Shown here in pieces: positions 9,020-55,094 of a stretch of 64,000 bases of DNA (position 1 is the stretch's first letter; every line of letters starts with the position of its first letter). The position numbers and the translations under genes were made by a program. The notes under the pieces are model-generated. The model had not been told where the DNA came from. It worked only from the letters and a program-made list of their open reading frames with translations, and ran no database searches. Source of the stretch: Octopus vulgaris. Lineage: Eukaryota. The stretch is from positions 34,720,001 through 34,784,000 of the forward strand of contig OX597830.1 in the NCBI GenBank assembly GCA_951406725.2, read 5' to 3'.

Positions 9020-9346
9020 AACTGGCATTCCGTCAGTTACGACGACGAGTGATGTAGTTGATCCAAACAGCAAAGCAGACTGCTCGTGCAATAAATGTGG
9101 GAAATGGCTGAGTACTCAACAGACACGCCTCCTTTGATGTAGTCTCTCGGTGACAGTCAACGGGACACGGAAAATGACAAAGTCGGCACTTTGAAATACA
9201 GGTATTACTTGTTTTCGCCAGTTGAGTGGACAGAAGCAAGATGAAATAGTGTTCTAGCTCAAGGGCACAACGACACAACACAACGCGTTGCCGGGAATCG
9301 AACTCGCGCCCTTACGCTCGTGAGAAAAATATTCTAACCACTAAGC
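9020..9346 (-). mobile_element. tRNA-derived SINE family C
   Basis: Minus strand reads cttagtggttag...gagttcgattcccgg (A/B boxes) then cccttgagc...ccactcaactggcgaaaac; related copies at 13478(+), 44790(-), 54690(-). Confidence 0.75.
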
Positions 9347-18543: not shown

Positions 18544-19475
18544 GATATTTACTAGTTTGTACAGCGTATTGATAAATAATTAAAGCCTACAGGAAATGCA
18601 TTAGAGATTACATGATTAGAATTAATAGATTCATAGCTGCTATGTATAATCAGTTTTGGAATGTGGTTAGATGCAGTAAATGTTTGTGCAAAGTTCGATG
18701 TAGTAAAATAAAACTGTTTGGGGTCGTACAAAACATTCATAAAGTTTGAGCTGTAGGTACGTTTCTTGAGTTGAGTAATTTAAAGAAAGATTTTAGTGAC
18801 TGAGGATTCAGCAGTTTTTAATGTTCATTCTACCATTTCTATTTCAATGACAGGATGATCTAAATACGTAGCCAGTATATCAGGTTATTGCTTTCTTTTC
18901 GCTTTTAGAGTAAGATCGTCTTAACAAAATTTGAAAGACCCGAGGAAAAACTGTTCCTTAGCAGAGAGGTTCGGGAAAACATTTTTCAATAAATTGCTGA
19001 TATCATTACAAGGGCGGTTTAAATGTTTGTGGACATCGATAGATGCTTTGGTAAGGATAGTACAAGAATAGTTCTTTTTAATTCCAAGTAAAATTCGCAG
19101 ACATTCAACATTGGTTAGTCTCTATGGCAATCAAGAATCCAACGCTCTCGAACGAAGAATTTATTAATTTTTGTAATTATAAAAAGATTATTATAAAAAG
19201 ATTAGAAGCCATCTCGATATCCGATCCACCACAGCGAAAAACAATAACAACAGTGAATACAAAAATCATACAGTAGTAGTAGTAGTAGTTATTTTTGTTC
19301 TTGTTGTTATTCATTTTATGCTTGTGTAATGCGTCGTAGCAGAAGACATTGCTAATTTCATTAGAATCGTTAGTTACCACGCTTATACAGTTCTATATTT
19401 AAGAGATGAGGAATTATGTAGATTATTTACCTTATTTACATTTGACGGATATTCGTCCTCATCTTGTTTGTTGTT

Positions 19476-19521
19476 AACACAACGTTTCGGCTGATATACC
19501 CTCCAACATTCATCAGGTGTC
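19476..19521 (-). ncRNA. Minimal type I hammerhead ribozyme motif (stem II mutated)
   Basis: Minus strand gacac CUGAUGA a uguug gagggtatat cagcc GAAA cg UU guguu. Confidence 0.65.
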
Positions 19522-19567
19522 TTGGGAAATTTCGAACCTGGGTTCTCATTCCTAAGGTATTTTTCGA

Positions 19568-19632
<65 letters not shown>

Positions 19633-19722
19633 TCACTGCTTGGAATCGAGCTCAGAATCTTGGGGTTAGTAACACTACGCCATATGCCCACGGGCATATG
19701 GCGTAGTGATCTGAATAATAAA

Positions 19723-19796
<74 letters not shown>

Positions 19797-19860
19797 CAAC
19801 AACAACAACATCATCGAAAAATACCTTAGGAATGAGAACCCAGGTTCGAAATTTCCCCAA

Positions 19861-19906
19861 GACACCTGATGAAGGCTGGAGGGTATAACAGTCGAAACGT
19901 TGTGCT
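19861..19906 (+). ncRNA. Minimal type I hammerhead ribozyme motif
   Basis: gacac CUGAUGA a ggcug-loop-caguc GAAA cg UU gugcu; palindromic ACGU stem III as in Penelope-associated minimal hammerheads. Confidence 0.75.
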
Positions 19907-20960
19907 AACAACAATCAAGATGAGGACAAATATCCGTCAAATGTAAATAATGTAAATAATGTAAATAATGTACCATGCTTATGTCAAACAAAGACATAGA
20001 TTTTCTTTTCTGAATCCAGACGACGTTGTGATATTACACAATTGTCTTGTGAGTATCTCGTCATAAATTCTAACATCTACCGCGGAAAGGTTCTTTTCGG
20101 TTATTGATTGTGCGACATTAAGCGCATCAATCACTAAATGTTGGATGTTTGATAAATCCATAACGTTGATCTGCGTAAGGTTTGTCTTATTTCATATTCT
20201 GTTTAATTTGATCCGTTCAGATACTGATATCGTATTCTGCCATAAAATTAAGTGTGCTACCTTAATTTTATAGGGTTTTCTATCTAATGATTCTTAATTA
20301 TTGTTGTCACGTAAGTTTTGGAAAATTCGCTCATCTAATGGCGATAGTATCTCTGTAGTCTTACAGACTATAAAAACCTTGTTTTGGCGTGAGTTGCTCG
20401 GTCTTCAAATGAATATTTAGGTCAGAAGAAGGTTTGGTCCATGGACATTAATTTGATTATAGGTATCTCATTTTCTCTTCCTATAGGTATGTGCGATGCA
20501 GTATGAAGTGTGTAGTGTGATTTATTTAATAAATATTCTTCGTTTAATTAGAGTGACTGAAATCATTATTTCGCGTAATGCATTGTTCCAATTTGTACAA
20601 GAGTCCACGTTTATTTTCACCCGAAGGCTTCATTGCTGTTGGGAAACAACATTTTGCAAATATGCAGCATTCATGTAAATATACATAACTAAATATAGAT
20701 ATATAACGCATAACTATTGTTTATCAGTGCGTCCACAATGCCAATTGTCATGATTCTGCATGGCATTTGACTGAGAAGAGACATATATGTAATAATCGTG
20801 GTAAAAGCTGAAAATAATCATTTTGGTCAAAACGGTATCTTTGATTTGTACATAAGCAAGGATTGTACATATTACTAGGCCGACTTCTGACATGTACAGA
20901 TGCACGAACATACATAGACACACAAATACATACACATGCTCGTGCGCGTGCATGTATGTG

Positions 20961-32178: not shown

Positions 32179-32400
32179 TGCCTTTGCACAGCTTCTAAAG
32201 CAGAAGATGTACTACAGTTTCAACTGTTCTCTACCAGAAACTAAGGTAACACCTCTTATTTTTCGAGCACTTTCCGGAGAATTCGAGTGGTTTCAAGCAG
32301 TGCTGTTTTCTGCAAGTGCCCTACACTTATTGCAGCCCTTATTTGTTCCATGTACCTCTCAAGATTTTTGCTTACTGTTCCCCAGGGCTCCGAATGACCC
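32179..32400 (-). mobile_element. 3' end of RLE-type LINE (same family as 37684-38425)
   Basis: gcctttgcacagcttctaa...ctaaggtaacacctcttattttt...aagcagtgctgttttctgcaa shared with 37684 onward; encodes the LQKTALL C-terminus. Confidence 0.85.
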
Positions 32401-32513
32401 GTCCTTGTTTTTTTTTGTATCGTCTATCTGGATGTTTTGTTGTCCCTTTTTGTATCACCTAGCTGTCCGGATGTTTTGCGTTCTTGTCCCATTTTGTATT
32501 TTATATATATATA

Positions 32514-34136
32514 CCAACTTGCAGTCCCTCTGACCAACCTCTGGAGAAATTCGTTAGACGCAGGTTATATACCGAAACTGTTTCTATTCCAGTCGGTCTC
32601 CCCGGTTTTCAAACAGGGAAACAGATCCCTCGCAGTCAACTATCGCCCAATCTCACTCACCTCCCACATCATTAAAGTGTTTGAAAGAGTGTTAAGATCA
32701 AGGATAGCTGACTTCCTGGAGACCCACAAACTCCTAAATGCAAATCAGCATGGCTTTCGCTGTGGCAGGGACTGTCTAACACAGCTCTTACACCACATTG
32801 AAGATGTACTCAAAGCCTTGGGAACAGGTTCGAACTCTGACGTCATATATCTTGACTTCAGTAAAGCGTTCGACAGGGTAGACCATAACATCCTACTCTC
32901 AAAATTGGCAAACGTTGGAATCCGTGGAAAAGTTCTACACTGGATTAAGTATTTCCTGGCGGATAGAACACAACATGTTGTAGTTGATGGAGTCCACTCA
33001 AACCCAGCAAAAGTCACCAGCGGTGTTCCCCAGGGAACTGTTTTGGGTCCGCTACTCTTCATAATTTACGTAAACGACCTTTCCAGTGTCGTACATTACT
33101 GCAAAGTGAAAATGTTTGCTGATGACACTAAGCTCTAGCAAATCGTCAATGCAGAAGCAGACCGAACTCAACTCCAGTCTGATCTATATGCTGTGAGTCA
33201 ATGGGCAGACAGAAACAAAATGCAATTGAATGAGGGAAAATTTGAGCTGATGCATTTTGGAAGAAATTCCTCACTAAAACAACCATACTCTGTTCCTTCA
33301 GGGGAACCGCTCACAGCCTCTAACAATATCAGAGACCTGGGTGTAATTGTTGATGACGATCTCAGTTGGAGTGCACACATCAACAAGAAGGTCGATATAG
33401 CTCGTAGGATGAGTTCCTGGATCTTAAGAACTTTCCGGTCCAGAGAACAAGGTGTCATCATACCACTTTTTTCCTCCATTGTACGGCCACACCTTGAATA
33501 CTTCTGCCCACTGTGGTCTCCTCACACAAGACAAAACATCTCCAGAATTGAGTCACCCCAGAGGGCACTCACTAAACATATTGAAGGCTTGGCTGCTCTC
33601 GATTATTGGGATCGCCTTAAAGCCTTGAAACTTTACTCCCTCCAGCGTCGCCGTGAGCGGTACATCATTTGTACGATGTGGAAAATATACCGCCAACTTT
33701 GCCCAAACGACCTAAACATTAGCTTCAAGGTTCATCCAAGACTTGGACCACGGGCTATACGGCGCCTGCCCAATTCAAGATCACAACATACATGTACACT
33801 GCAACATAATTTCTTTTCCTCAACTGGCCCTGCCCTATTTAACATTGTCCCGAGGGAGATCAAAGAGGAAAAGGATCCCATCAACTTTAAACAGAGTCTG
33901 GACAGATTCCTTCAAAGAATACCAGATAAGCCACCCATAATTGGATACAACTCACTACCAACAAGAACTCACTACTTGAACAAAACTGGATACAACTCAC
34001 CCAACAAGAACTCACTACTTGAACAAAACTTGACTTAAACAGGATTCGAATAATCCTATCAGGTGGTGCTATTAAGTTAGACATGGCCTGGACCAATCTT
34101 TGGTCGAAACATATCTAAGTTTATCTAAGTCTAAGT
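32514..34136 (+). mobile_element. 5'-truncated CR1/L2-like LINE; RT domain with a single in-frame stop at 33136-33138
   Basis: NYRPISLTS, QHGFR, YLDFSKAFDRVDH, SGVPQGTVLGPLLF, FADDTKL, RDLGVIVD, VRPHLEY, LYSLQRRRER; ORFs 32437-33138 and 33193-34038 share a frame; 3' stem-loop gacc/ggtc and (tctaagt)n tail; flanked by (TA)n. Confidence 0.95.
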
Positions 34137-37683: not shown

Positions 37684-38425
37684 GCCTTTGCACAGCTTCT
37701 AACGCTGGAGATGTATTGCGTTGTCAGCTGTTCACTACCAGTGAACTAAGGTAACACCTCTTATTTTTCCAGCACCTTCAGGAGTATTTGAGCGTTTCCA
37801 AGCAGTGCTGTTTTCTGCAAATGCTCCACTCTTTTTGCAGCCCCCATTTGTTCCATGTACTTCTCGAGATTTTTACTCACTGTTCTCAGTACTCCGACAA
37901 TTATTGGTACTACTACCACTTTTTACATCGACCACAACTGCTTAACTTTCCAAGCTAACCTGTCATATCTCTTGACTTTTCTTTCTTCCTTATCGCATAC
38001 CTTGTTGTCAGCTGGGCATGCTATATCTATGATCCAGCATAGTTTGTTTTCTTTCTCAATTAAGACTATGTTTGGCTTCCTATTCTCCATTTCATGGTCG
38101 CACTGAACCATAAAATCCCATAGGATCTTTGCATTACTATTTTCGATGATGCCTTCAAGTTTGTGGTCGTACCAATTTTTTGCTCTGTCAAATCTATACT
38201 TGCTGCAAAGTGTCCAATAGACAAACCTGGCTATATTGTCGTGGCGTCTCTTATATTCCTTCTGGACTAGTGGCTTTACATTGGCTGGTAATAGGCCATA
38301 CGGCTTCACCGTTTTGTCCACAGATTTTACATTTGTCACTTTCTGCTGTGTTGTCTATTCTGTGTTTTATGTAGTTTGTTAGTGCTTGCTCTTATGCAGC
38401 ACAGATTAGAGCCTCCGTTTCTGGT
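37684..38425 (-). mobile_element. RLE-type (R4/Dong-like) LINE 3' fragment: zinc knuckle + endonuclease
   Basis: ETEALICAA*EQAL, CKICGQNGE (CCHC remnant), YKRRHDNIA, KILWDF, RKPNIV, IIDIACP, LQKTALL; frameshift and stops; TAA-type microsatellites on both sides. Confidence 0.92.
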
Positions 38426-50747: not shown

Positions 50748-51530
50748 CCATGCGGGTCAGGGTTTCTTCCCTTTCGTTAGCTGTTCTTGTTCGGAATTCA
50801 TGAGCACTCTCAAGTCCCTTTTTGTTAAATCCTTCTGCATTAACAGCATACTGTAGTAAGTCTTATCTGTTTTTTACCAAATGTTCTGCCTTGCTTCTTC
50901 TTTCAATATTAGTGATTGTGATAGTCTTGCACAGAAAGAGTACAAGCGTAGACACGACAAGATAGCCTAAAACATCCACTGGCTACTATGCCGTAAGTAT
51001 GGATATGAGTTTACAGTTGCTTGGTACAAACATCCAGCGGAAAAGGTAATGGCTGAAAAAAAGGAGGCAAAAATGCTCTGGGACTTTGACTTCCATACAT
51101 ACAAGGTATTAGAGCACCGAAGGCCAGATGTAGTAACCTTTAGGAGGGACAAACAAGAGTTCCTAATAATTGATGTGGCAGTGCCAGGAGATCAACATAT
51201 CATCATGAAAGAAAGGGAAAAGGTTTAATAAATATGGAGACCTGATAATTGAGATCGCTAAGATGTGGCAGCTATGAGAGTCAAATATAAAGGTTATCCC
51301 TATTGTCATCGGAGTATTGGGTTCAATACCACCCAATCTGCAAAAACATCTGAAAAATTTAGAAATACCCTACAATCCAGGTGCATTGCAAAAGTCGGCA
51401 GTACTTGGAACTGCACGCATATTGGGTAAATTACTGTCTGTGTGATGTCTTAGTTGTGACTTGACAAACGGTAGACACAATATCATCAATCAACAACCTC
51501 ATGATATTGTATACTGTGCGACGTCTATAT
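50748..51530 (+). mobile_element. RLE-type LINE 3' fragment with an inverted 5' segment
   Basis: + strand LAQKEYKRRHDKIA, KMLWDF, HRRPDVV, IIDVAVPGD, VIPIVIGVLG, LQKSAVLGTARIL; 50748-50905 reads as upstream LINE-like peptide on the minus strand. Confidence 0.88.
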
Positions 51531-54650: not shown

Positions 54651-55094
54651 TTGTCTGAACAGGGGTAGGATGTACCACACCTCAGTTGCCGAAGTGGTCT
54701 CAGAGCGAGGTGAGATGAAGTGTTTTGCTCAAGAACAGAACGTACCACCCGACCTAAGCATTAAACACGCCATCTCACGATCGTAAGTGCGGGTACCCTA
54801 ACCATTTAAGCTATGCGCCCTCAGATTATGAGATATGGCTGATTGAAAGGAGTGTATTTATTGGGAGCATCAAAACTATCAGGAAGGACACTCGATGATT
54901 AGAGTAACTAAAAGGAATGGAAAAGACGAGGAAGAGATTGTTTGACAGCTAAAGCTACTGATTGTAGCCGTATTTAGGCACAAAAGTAACCAGGTTATAA
55001 GATCCATCCACAGAAAAAAAAAAAGCAATGATAATAATACAGTAGTCAGTTGTTTATGTGGTGGGAAAACTATTGTTCTCATCAACACAAAATT

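Follow-up and report, generated by a model that had tools for sequence, protein, structure and literature searches.

A tRNA-derived head opens the pseudo-long terminal repeat of a Penelope retrotransposon in Octopus vulgaris and may act as its RNA polymerase III promoter

A stretch of 64,000 nucleotides of the Octopus vulgaris genome (contig OX597830.1, positions 34,720,001 to 34,784,000 of the forward strand; hereafter the window) harbors an inverted dimer of a repeat in which a tRNA-like head is joined through an (AAT)n tract to a hammerhead ribozyme motif. Is this composite a self-cleaving short interspersed element (SINE) in its own right, as an earlier note on this DNA had proposed, or a part of a larger element, and which polymerase would transcribe it? 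Comparison with copies elsewhere in the same genome identifies the head, the (AAT)n tract and the hammerhead-bearing "tail" as the pseudo-long terminal repeat (pLTR) of a Poseidon-type Penelope retrotransposon, an architecture that we regard as secure on the sequence evidence. The new feature is the tRNA-like head, with its A and B boxes, at the start of a Penelope pLTR. The best reading of this head is that it acts as a promoter of RNA polymerase III (Pol III) for the element, a view to which we give somewhat more than even credence.

The unit begins with the head (76 nt), followed by (AAT)n, an ATG with hammerhead, an open reading frame (ORF) for reverse transcriptase and a putative endonuclease, a stop codon, 23 nt and the next head. 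At locus L133 the end of a Penelope-like ORF is followed by head, AAT tract and tail, and two further loci (L245 and L254) carry the complete tandem junction from ORF end through head, AAT and tail to ORF start. The head was present in 28 and the tail in 27 of the 30 loci retrieved with the 3' end of the ORF, using a query that included 11 nt of the head, and the tail lay immediately 5' of the ORF body in 21 of the 30 loci retrieved with the latter. The pLTR was found at both element ends, overlapping the ORF start. Indeed, what the earlier note had taken for a separate ribozyme tail with (gtaaataat)n repeats turned out to be the N-terminus of the Penelope ORF: its translation from the ATG (19832 in the window) aligns to the N-terminus of a related protein, P0008, with 41-47% identity over approximately 120 residues (tblastn E 4.9e-8), and the 9-nt repeats of the right arm are in-frame VNN codons. 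P0008 itself contains the same hammerhead-encoded peptide in its N-terminus, plus an Asn-rich stretch.

The remainder of the protein is likewise of Penelope type. One copy (L181) aligns to residues 52-844 of P0008, a Penelope-like element (PLE) protein, and to residues 44-806 of an Anolis protein, and extends along nearly all of P0008 and P0043. The reverse transcriptase scores against RVT_1 (E 1.2e-9), and 92 homologues of the element protein show PLE-type domain sets. No match to the Pfam GIY-YIG model was obtained; the C-terminus aligns with homologues that include P0086 (PF01541), and a GIY-YIG motif was read by eye. A CxxC pair is missing from the linker read in the L133 and L154 frames but present in a second, 781-aa family described below; a zinc-finger linker between reverse transcriptase and endonuclease is a feature of Neptune/Nematis. 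Taken together, the reverse transcriptase ORF, the pLTR, the insertion pattern and a linker without zinc finger place the element in Penelope/Poseidon. All element copies examined are broken, with no intact ORF among them, and they diverge from the family majority by 4.6-7.7%; the family therefore looks old in this genome.

Two other partners for the tail were considered and rejected. One is a GIY-YIG Penelope-like family found at L097, L102 and many more places, apparently young, whose 781-aa frames are intact and include a CxxC linker, and whose long pLTR is made of tandem CCAAT/TGACGT-rich repeats. No tail match was detected in 30 loci of this family, and a hammerhead pattern search up to 1.5 kb downstream of its copies yielded no canonical motif in most of them. 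The other is a long interspersed element (LINE): the LINE 3' ends that precede some tails are later insertions in the AAT tract. Such 3' ends, which we take to be Dong/R4-like, lie within the (AAT)n tract at L007, L010, L025, L139, L147 and L002, where the copies serve as landing pads.

In the family head, as aligned from 38 full copies, both the A box and the B box fit the type 2 Pol III consensus, and its four top scores against host tRNAs all fall on tRNA-Arg (z 8.7-10.5; 40 host tRNA genes, with many isotypes missing from the set). The cloverleaf has become degenerate while the boxes hold the consensus. ARAGORN in relaxed mode calls a tRNA in 7 of the 38 full heads and ARAGORN calls none in the window, Rfam scans returned neither hammerhead nor tRNA in the window or in 10 and 3 family loci, and single-strand folding recovered neither hammerhead nor cloverleaf. 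Both motifs rest on direct inspection, the family alignment and the comparison with host tRNAs, from which the family head is judged to be tRNA-derived with complete A and B boxes, as the earlier note had supposed. Other tRNA-like sequences were seen along the way: the window contains two repeat heads (9290-9346 and 54762-54819) unlike those of this family, and seven tRNA-Cys-like genes and variants are clustered within 3 kb at L066.

The pLTR is far more abundant than the ORF. In the 2.8 Gb searched, exact matches to a 28-mer numbered 5222 at the tail start, 3051 in the head, 596 at the ORF stop and 3' untranslated region (UTR) and 141 in the ORF interior, with 0 for each reversed control; a 35-nt hammerhead core occurred 1598 times. 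Scaling by the exact-match fractions (18/78, 11/63, 8/17 and 2/57) gives roughly 17,000-45,000 heads or tails versus one to few thousand ORF ends, so that ORF-less copies are approximately 10 times commoner than ORF ends. The first 30 loci with the core pattern, selected without regard to the head, showed a same-strand upstream head in 21 cases, an inverted partner in 18 and ORF sequence in 4. Head and hammerhead thus travel together, and the possibility raised earlier that they occur independently gave way to a fixed order and orientation over hundreds of copies. Partial head-to-tail tandems form a minority (e.g., L002 and L132), most copies being single or head-to-head. When the majority sequence of ORF-less copies (140 tails, 98 heads) was compared with that of ORF-linked copies (72 tails, 60 heads), none of 185 tail columns and only 1 of 77 head columns differed, and that one is polymorphic. 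The majorities therefore match, and the sample contains no separate SINE lineage.

Copies also bear a Penelope insertion signature. In a set of 31 inverted pairs from 59 loci, three of which were counted twice, the target duplication score was at least 8 in 20 pairs, versus 16 of 924 mismatched-flank controls, and exactly one long end was found in 26 pairs (p 8e-5). The 5' ends pile up at a native hairpin at the pLTR start: where the head start is intact (30 loci), 14 have snap-back bases at the hairpin, 9 run on into the 3' UTR (a class read by eye) and 7 are of other kinds. Penelope insertion is known to yield head-to-head inversions as a by-product, and the combination of inverted copy, one-sided extension and target duplication is known for PLEs from Craig et al. 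(PMC8557442) and Arkhipova et al. (PMC3846280), the latter taking junction palindromes as self-priming. Frangieh et al. (PMC11167929) show that two internal reverse transcription start sites in the ORF start define the extension, and that insertion can proceed without the hammerhead, which itself depends on the protein. Minimal hammerheads, extensions of 30 nt on one side and inverted dimers are thus already known Penelope traits. The match of the tail to a pLTR and ORF start, along with this signature, agrees with the earlier suggestion that Penelope rather than LINE machinery mobilized the repeat. With their unequal ends, clean duplications and a hairpin junction that stays fixed, the many short dimers constitute a good dataset on the Penelope inversion mechanism.

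The dimer in the window fits this pattern, and its parts are as follows.
19375-19386: left target-site duplication, 12 bp, 11 of 12 bases matching the right copy
19387-19569, minus strand: left arm, N-terminal part of the Penelope ORF containing the hammerhead; long form, extended by ~30 nt (family tail positions 1-185)
19476-19521, minus strand: left minimal type I hammerhead, stem I with 5 of 5 pairs, stem II without G10.1-C11.1
19570-19628, minus strand: left (AAT)n tract, spacer between head and ORF start
19629-19689, minus strand: left tRNA-derived head, ~14 nt missing after GTAGTG and B box T54C, from the alignment of 38 full heads
19686-19695: GCCC-AC-GGGC mini-hairpin, inversion centre and 5'-end hotspot, native to the element, 23 nt 3' of the ORF stop
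19692-19713, plus strand: right head remnant, with a deletion at an AGTG microhomology from the A-box end through the B box
19714-19811, plus strand: right (AAT)n(AAC)n tract
19812-19970, plus strand: right arm, Penelope ORF N-terminus, short form without extension, ATG at 19832 and in-frame stop at codon 19
19861-19906, plus strand: right hammerhead, likewise minimal type I, with its core at 19866-19872, an extra A, palindromic ACGT replacing stem III and a predicted cut after 19901
19874-19878 and 19889-19893, plus strand: stem II of the right hammerhead
19971-19982: right target-site duplication

The two arms (19569-19413 and 19812-19969) are inverted and 93% identical across 158 nt, and the single mismatch in the duplication is a CpG transition; the dimer is a single insertion event, since one 12-bp target duplication brackets it. 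The inverted dimer, both (AAT)n tracts, the hairpin centre, both hammerhead cores and the predicted cleavage site described in the earlier note were all recovered. In a correction to that note, the left head is not intact: the deletion has removed the A-box end, the D stem and the 5' strand of the anticodon stem, and C stands instead of the family T at B-box position 54. Several further copies among loci L032-L043, which were picked by a query carrying this deletion, lack ~14 nt at the same site, and the deletion is likely recurrent at a GTTA microhomology. Loss of the B box from the right arm was confirmed, although the deletion fits the 4-nt AGTG and not the five-base agtga originally given. 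The reading frame of the left arm, with its ATG at 19549, is broken by a one-base deletion. With a truncated A box and mutated B box on the left and no B box on the right, the back-to-back promoters that were expected to yield one ribozyme RNA from each strand find no support in this copy; it appears to be dead, with both promoters damaged, the ribozymes on opposite strands and both arms predicted to be silent.

In both arms the hammerhead comprises a CTGATGA...GAAACGTT core, an extra base ahead of stem II and the palindrome ACGT in the place of stem III; the earlier observation that the right arm has the better stem II holds, as it keeps the G10.1-C11.1 pair lost on the left. The left hammerhead is likely inactive. 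Cleavage in the window copy is unlikely altogether, because each strand carries just one of the two ribozymes and an RNA read through both arms would pair them with each other. The family majority and the right arm show the CUGANGA/GAAA core, short stem I and stem III palindrome of the minimal PLE hammerhead, as presented by Cervera and de la Peña (PMC4209133). The main non-CpG core variant falls at the free N7 position (T 118, A 36; n=163), and the motif sits inside coding sequence, within the first ~55 ORF codons. Monomer folds did not adopt the hammerhead conformation; lacking stem III, the ribozyme would require a second sense copy or the element protein.

An ORF-bearing copy of the same element (L248, G000:C17) lies ~39 kb beyond the window end. 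Within the window, two long frames of 246 and 299 aa at 32398-34035 encode reverse transcriptase, presumably CR1-like, and LINE pieces of the L139 kind are found at 37926-38421, adjoining a long TAT/AAT array, and at 50908-51003.

Which polymerase the head serves was assessed from its position and from the distribution of terminators. The A/B-box head opens the pLTR at the place where most 5' ends gather, and the hotspot is 13 nt 5' of the A box, a distance usual for Pol III starts. Along 2318 nt of the element, surveyed in 66 copies at a coverage of at least 18, there is no TTTT (T4) common to more than 3 of 30 covering copies. The probability of finding none is 0.011, 0.014 or 0.0055 by three nulls; with the rate taken from 48 T-matched relatives it is 0.001. 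The head and tail majority sequences are also free of TTTT, leaving a sense strand of ~2.6 kb without an ancestral TTTT terminator (P 0.001-0.05 depending on the null). Relatives, taken as 80 loci from metagenome contigs, have a median T4 density of 3.4 per kb, and 1 of 34 long stretches was without any. Among the 26 with a visible pLTR, none was T4-free over the whole unit and none had a B box in the pLTR; 23 carried T4 runs in the pLTR, which is T-rich in most, whereas the octopus pLTR is T4-free. A hidden Markov model of host tRNAs run on the 80 loci gave two strong matches (L273 and L330), neither inside a pLTR. The other PLE family in the octopus genome has 6-7 T4 runs in 4 of 6 frames. 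In host tRNA genes the first T run is exactly T4 in 11 of 40, longer in 21 and absent in 8. Contigs from four runs under four organism labels span all 30 element bins; they show neither strand, start nor level of expression, and were not used as evidence.

According to the mechanism that we propose, Pol III would start at the mini-hairpin ~13 nt 5' of the A box and, without TTTT on its path, would continue through the ORF. The element protein would nick AT-rich DNA, and reverse transcription would begin inside the ORF start at either of two sites ~30 nt apart. From a start in the upstream pLTR, the cDNA would run off at the RNA 5' end after ~300 nt, snap back on the terminal hairpin and be copied into an inverted dimer whose arms, one long and the other short, share a single target duplication; a start in the downstream pLTR would give ordinary 5'-truncated ORF copies. 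This route to dimers, run-off followed by snap-back, is inferred. The fuller form of the proposal, an element that swapped its Pol II promoter for a tRNA-derived one, purged TTTT, had its full-length uncapped Pol III RNA translated behind an (AAU)n leader and shed tens of thousands of SINE-like copies of its own promoter, is more tentative, and we hold it to be possible rather than probable.

Several observations weigh against this account or limit its support. Conditional on the 12 TTT runs of the element, the probability of no T4 is 0.048, so that its absence is a modest effect; GGGG is likewise absent (0 versus 2.7 expected), and the 26 control relatives include sister copies. L262, which ranks highest among the metagenome relatives that have a visible pLTR (48% identity), is T4-free over its 1906-nt ORF and has no tRNA head, and part of the T4 effect may therefore be lineage composition. 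Private variants shared per arm pair number 0.93 in 15 dimers versus 0.32 for random pairs, and 0 in the window dimer, a slight sharing that gives weak support to the snap-back origin. Moreover, an uncapped Pol III RNA of 2.6 kb would need to be translated. A-rich unstructured leaders aid translation in some viral RNAs, and the (AAU)n leader might help here. Kojima (PMC10886601) argues that Pol III processivity excludes such a long RNA.

These points overlap with what speaks for the strongest rival, in which Pol II drives the same Penelope element, with the tRNA head as a passenger left by a short AAT-tailed SINE once inserted into the pLTR and the hairpin as a Pol II start or template-switch hotspot. 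A TATA-like TTTATAAG spans the stop codon of ORF-linked copies 28 nt 5' of the hairpin and fits Pol II equally, although it also reads as plain Leu-stop codons. The Penelope of D. virilis is reported to have an internal promoter of the initiator and downstream promoter element type (Inr/DPE; PMC2377424), and rotifer Penelopes with TATA/Inr-like motifs show 5' palindromes in their pLTRs and inverted junctions (PMC3846280); since they do, the 5' hotspot needs no Pol III. Nevertheless, a passenger head accounts poorly for A and B boxes held at consensus as the cloverleaf decayed, for the exact coincidence of head and 5' hotspot, and for a pLTR cleared of the T4 runs usual in relatives. Transcription by Pol II with an idle head is thus a serious but rather unlikely explanation, and promotion by Pol III is preferred.

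A division of labor, in which the long coding RNA comes from a Pol II start upstream and Pol III supplies short head-to-tail RNAs that the element protein copies in trans as a built-in SINE, would suit the excess of ORF-less copies, ending at a plausible Pol III start. It leaves unexplained why TTTT is missing through the entire ORF, and ORF-less copies form no lineage of their own; we consider it improbable. The original proposal of an independent self-cleaving SINE, moved by Penelope machinery and equipped with functional back-to-back promoters, draws on the frequent pairing of hammerhead cores with an upstream head and the scarcity of ORF sequence beside them. Yet head, AAT and tail are contiguous within an ORF-bearing element, diagnostic SINE variants are lacking, both promoters of the window copy are damaged and the dimers carry the standard Penelope signature, making it very improbable: what looked like a SINE of its own makes up the terminal repeat of an autonomous-type Penelope together with the start of its ORF. 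That a tRNA SINE and a hammerhead repeat came to be nested by chance in AAT microsatellites, conceivable inasmuch as AAT tracts attract other insertions (the LINE 3' ends at L139, L147, L007, L010 and L025), deserves next to no credence given the fixed order and orientation, the fixed junction to the ORF stop and the single target duplication round the whole dimer.

If Pol III does transcribe the element, it would be an exception to the rule, stated in PMC10886601, that SINEs use Pol III and autonomous retrotransposons Pol II; it would also provide a natural long Pol III RNA that is translated, i.e., a Pol III mRNA, and a direct path from Penelope elements to SINE-like repeats. Even under Pol II, the family shows that the terminal repeat of a Penelope element can look like a SINE, a point of importance for the annotation of SINE-rich genomes.

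Among known systems, the octopus SINEs OK, OR1 and OR2, compared here by description and not by sequence, likewise have tRNA-derived heads, and OR1 and OR2 are reportedly of tRNA-Arg origin. A SINE2 shares with the present family a tRNA-related head, but this family forms no independent lineage and its 3' part is a Penelope ORF start instead of a LINE-derived tail. OR2 is listed as a CORE-SINE where PMC4758252 and PMC5804259 mention it, a label that misfits a family whose body is an ORF start, and those mentions do not describe a tRNA-headed Penelope family; nor do the portions covered of the cephalopod repeat surveys PMC13282606, PMC8967140 and PMC6962438. Literature searches returned no tRNA-derived promoter in a pLTR, although Repbase, Dfam, supplements, deposited libraries and the 1994 octopus SINE paper lay outside the comparison and could hold the family under another label.

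The Sm-alpha and Sj-alpha repeats of Schistosoma also combine a Pol III-type promoter with a type I hammerhead in a short repeat, but as characterized in PMC6765202 they cleave themselves out of tandem arrays and lack an ORF, whereas the octopus hammerhead is of the minimal PLE type, inside an ORF, and its copies are dispersed or inverted. Non-LTR retrozymes are likewise ORF-less hammerhead repeats tied to pLTRs; they are defined by head-to-tail tandem arrays, with no tRNA head mentioned in the passages of the preprint that define them (bioRxiv 10.64898/2026.07.22.740005), and the octopus copies, being mostly single or head-to-head, do not form such arrays. The TRIMp3 families Cassandra, Helenus and Ajax resemble the octopus element in that a terminal repeat contains a Pol III promoter derived from a small RNA. 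As outlined in PMC10886601, they are non-coding LTR derivatives of 311-1263 bp, and Kojima argues that their autonomous partners must use Pol II; the octopus repeat belongs to a protein-coding element of the Penelope class, with a PLE ORF in its unit. The closest likeness is to PAc of Anolis (PMC11167929) and Adineta Pen2a (PMC3846280), which share an ORF for reverse transcriptase and, putatively in the octopus element, C-terminal endonuclease, a pLTR over the ORF start, a minimal hammerhead, partial tandems, an inverted pLTR with an optional extension of 30-40 nt, a target duplication and a palindrome at the inverted junction. Promoters reported for PLEs in PMC2377424 and PMC3846280 are of Pol II type (Inr/DPE, TATA). 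Compared with PAc and Pen2a, the octopus pLTR is set apart by opening with a tRNA-derived A/B-box head and (AAT)n, in a unit without ancestral TTTT.
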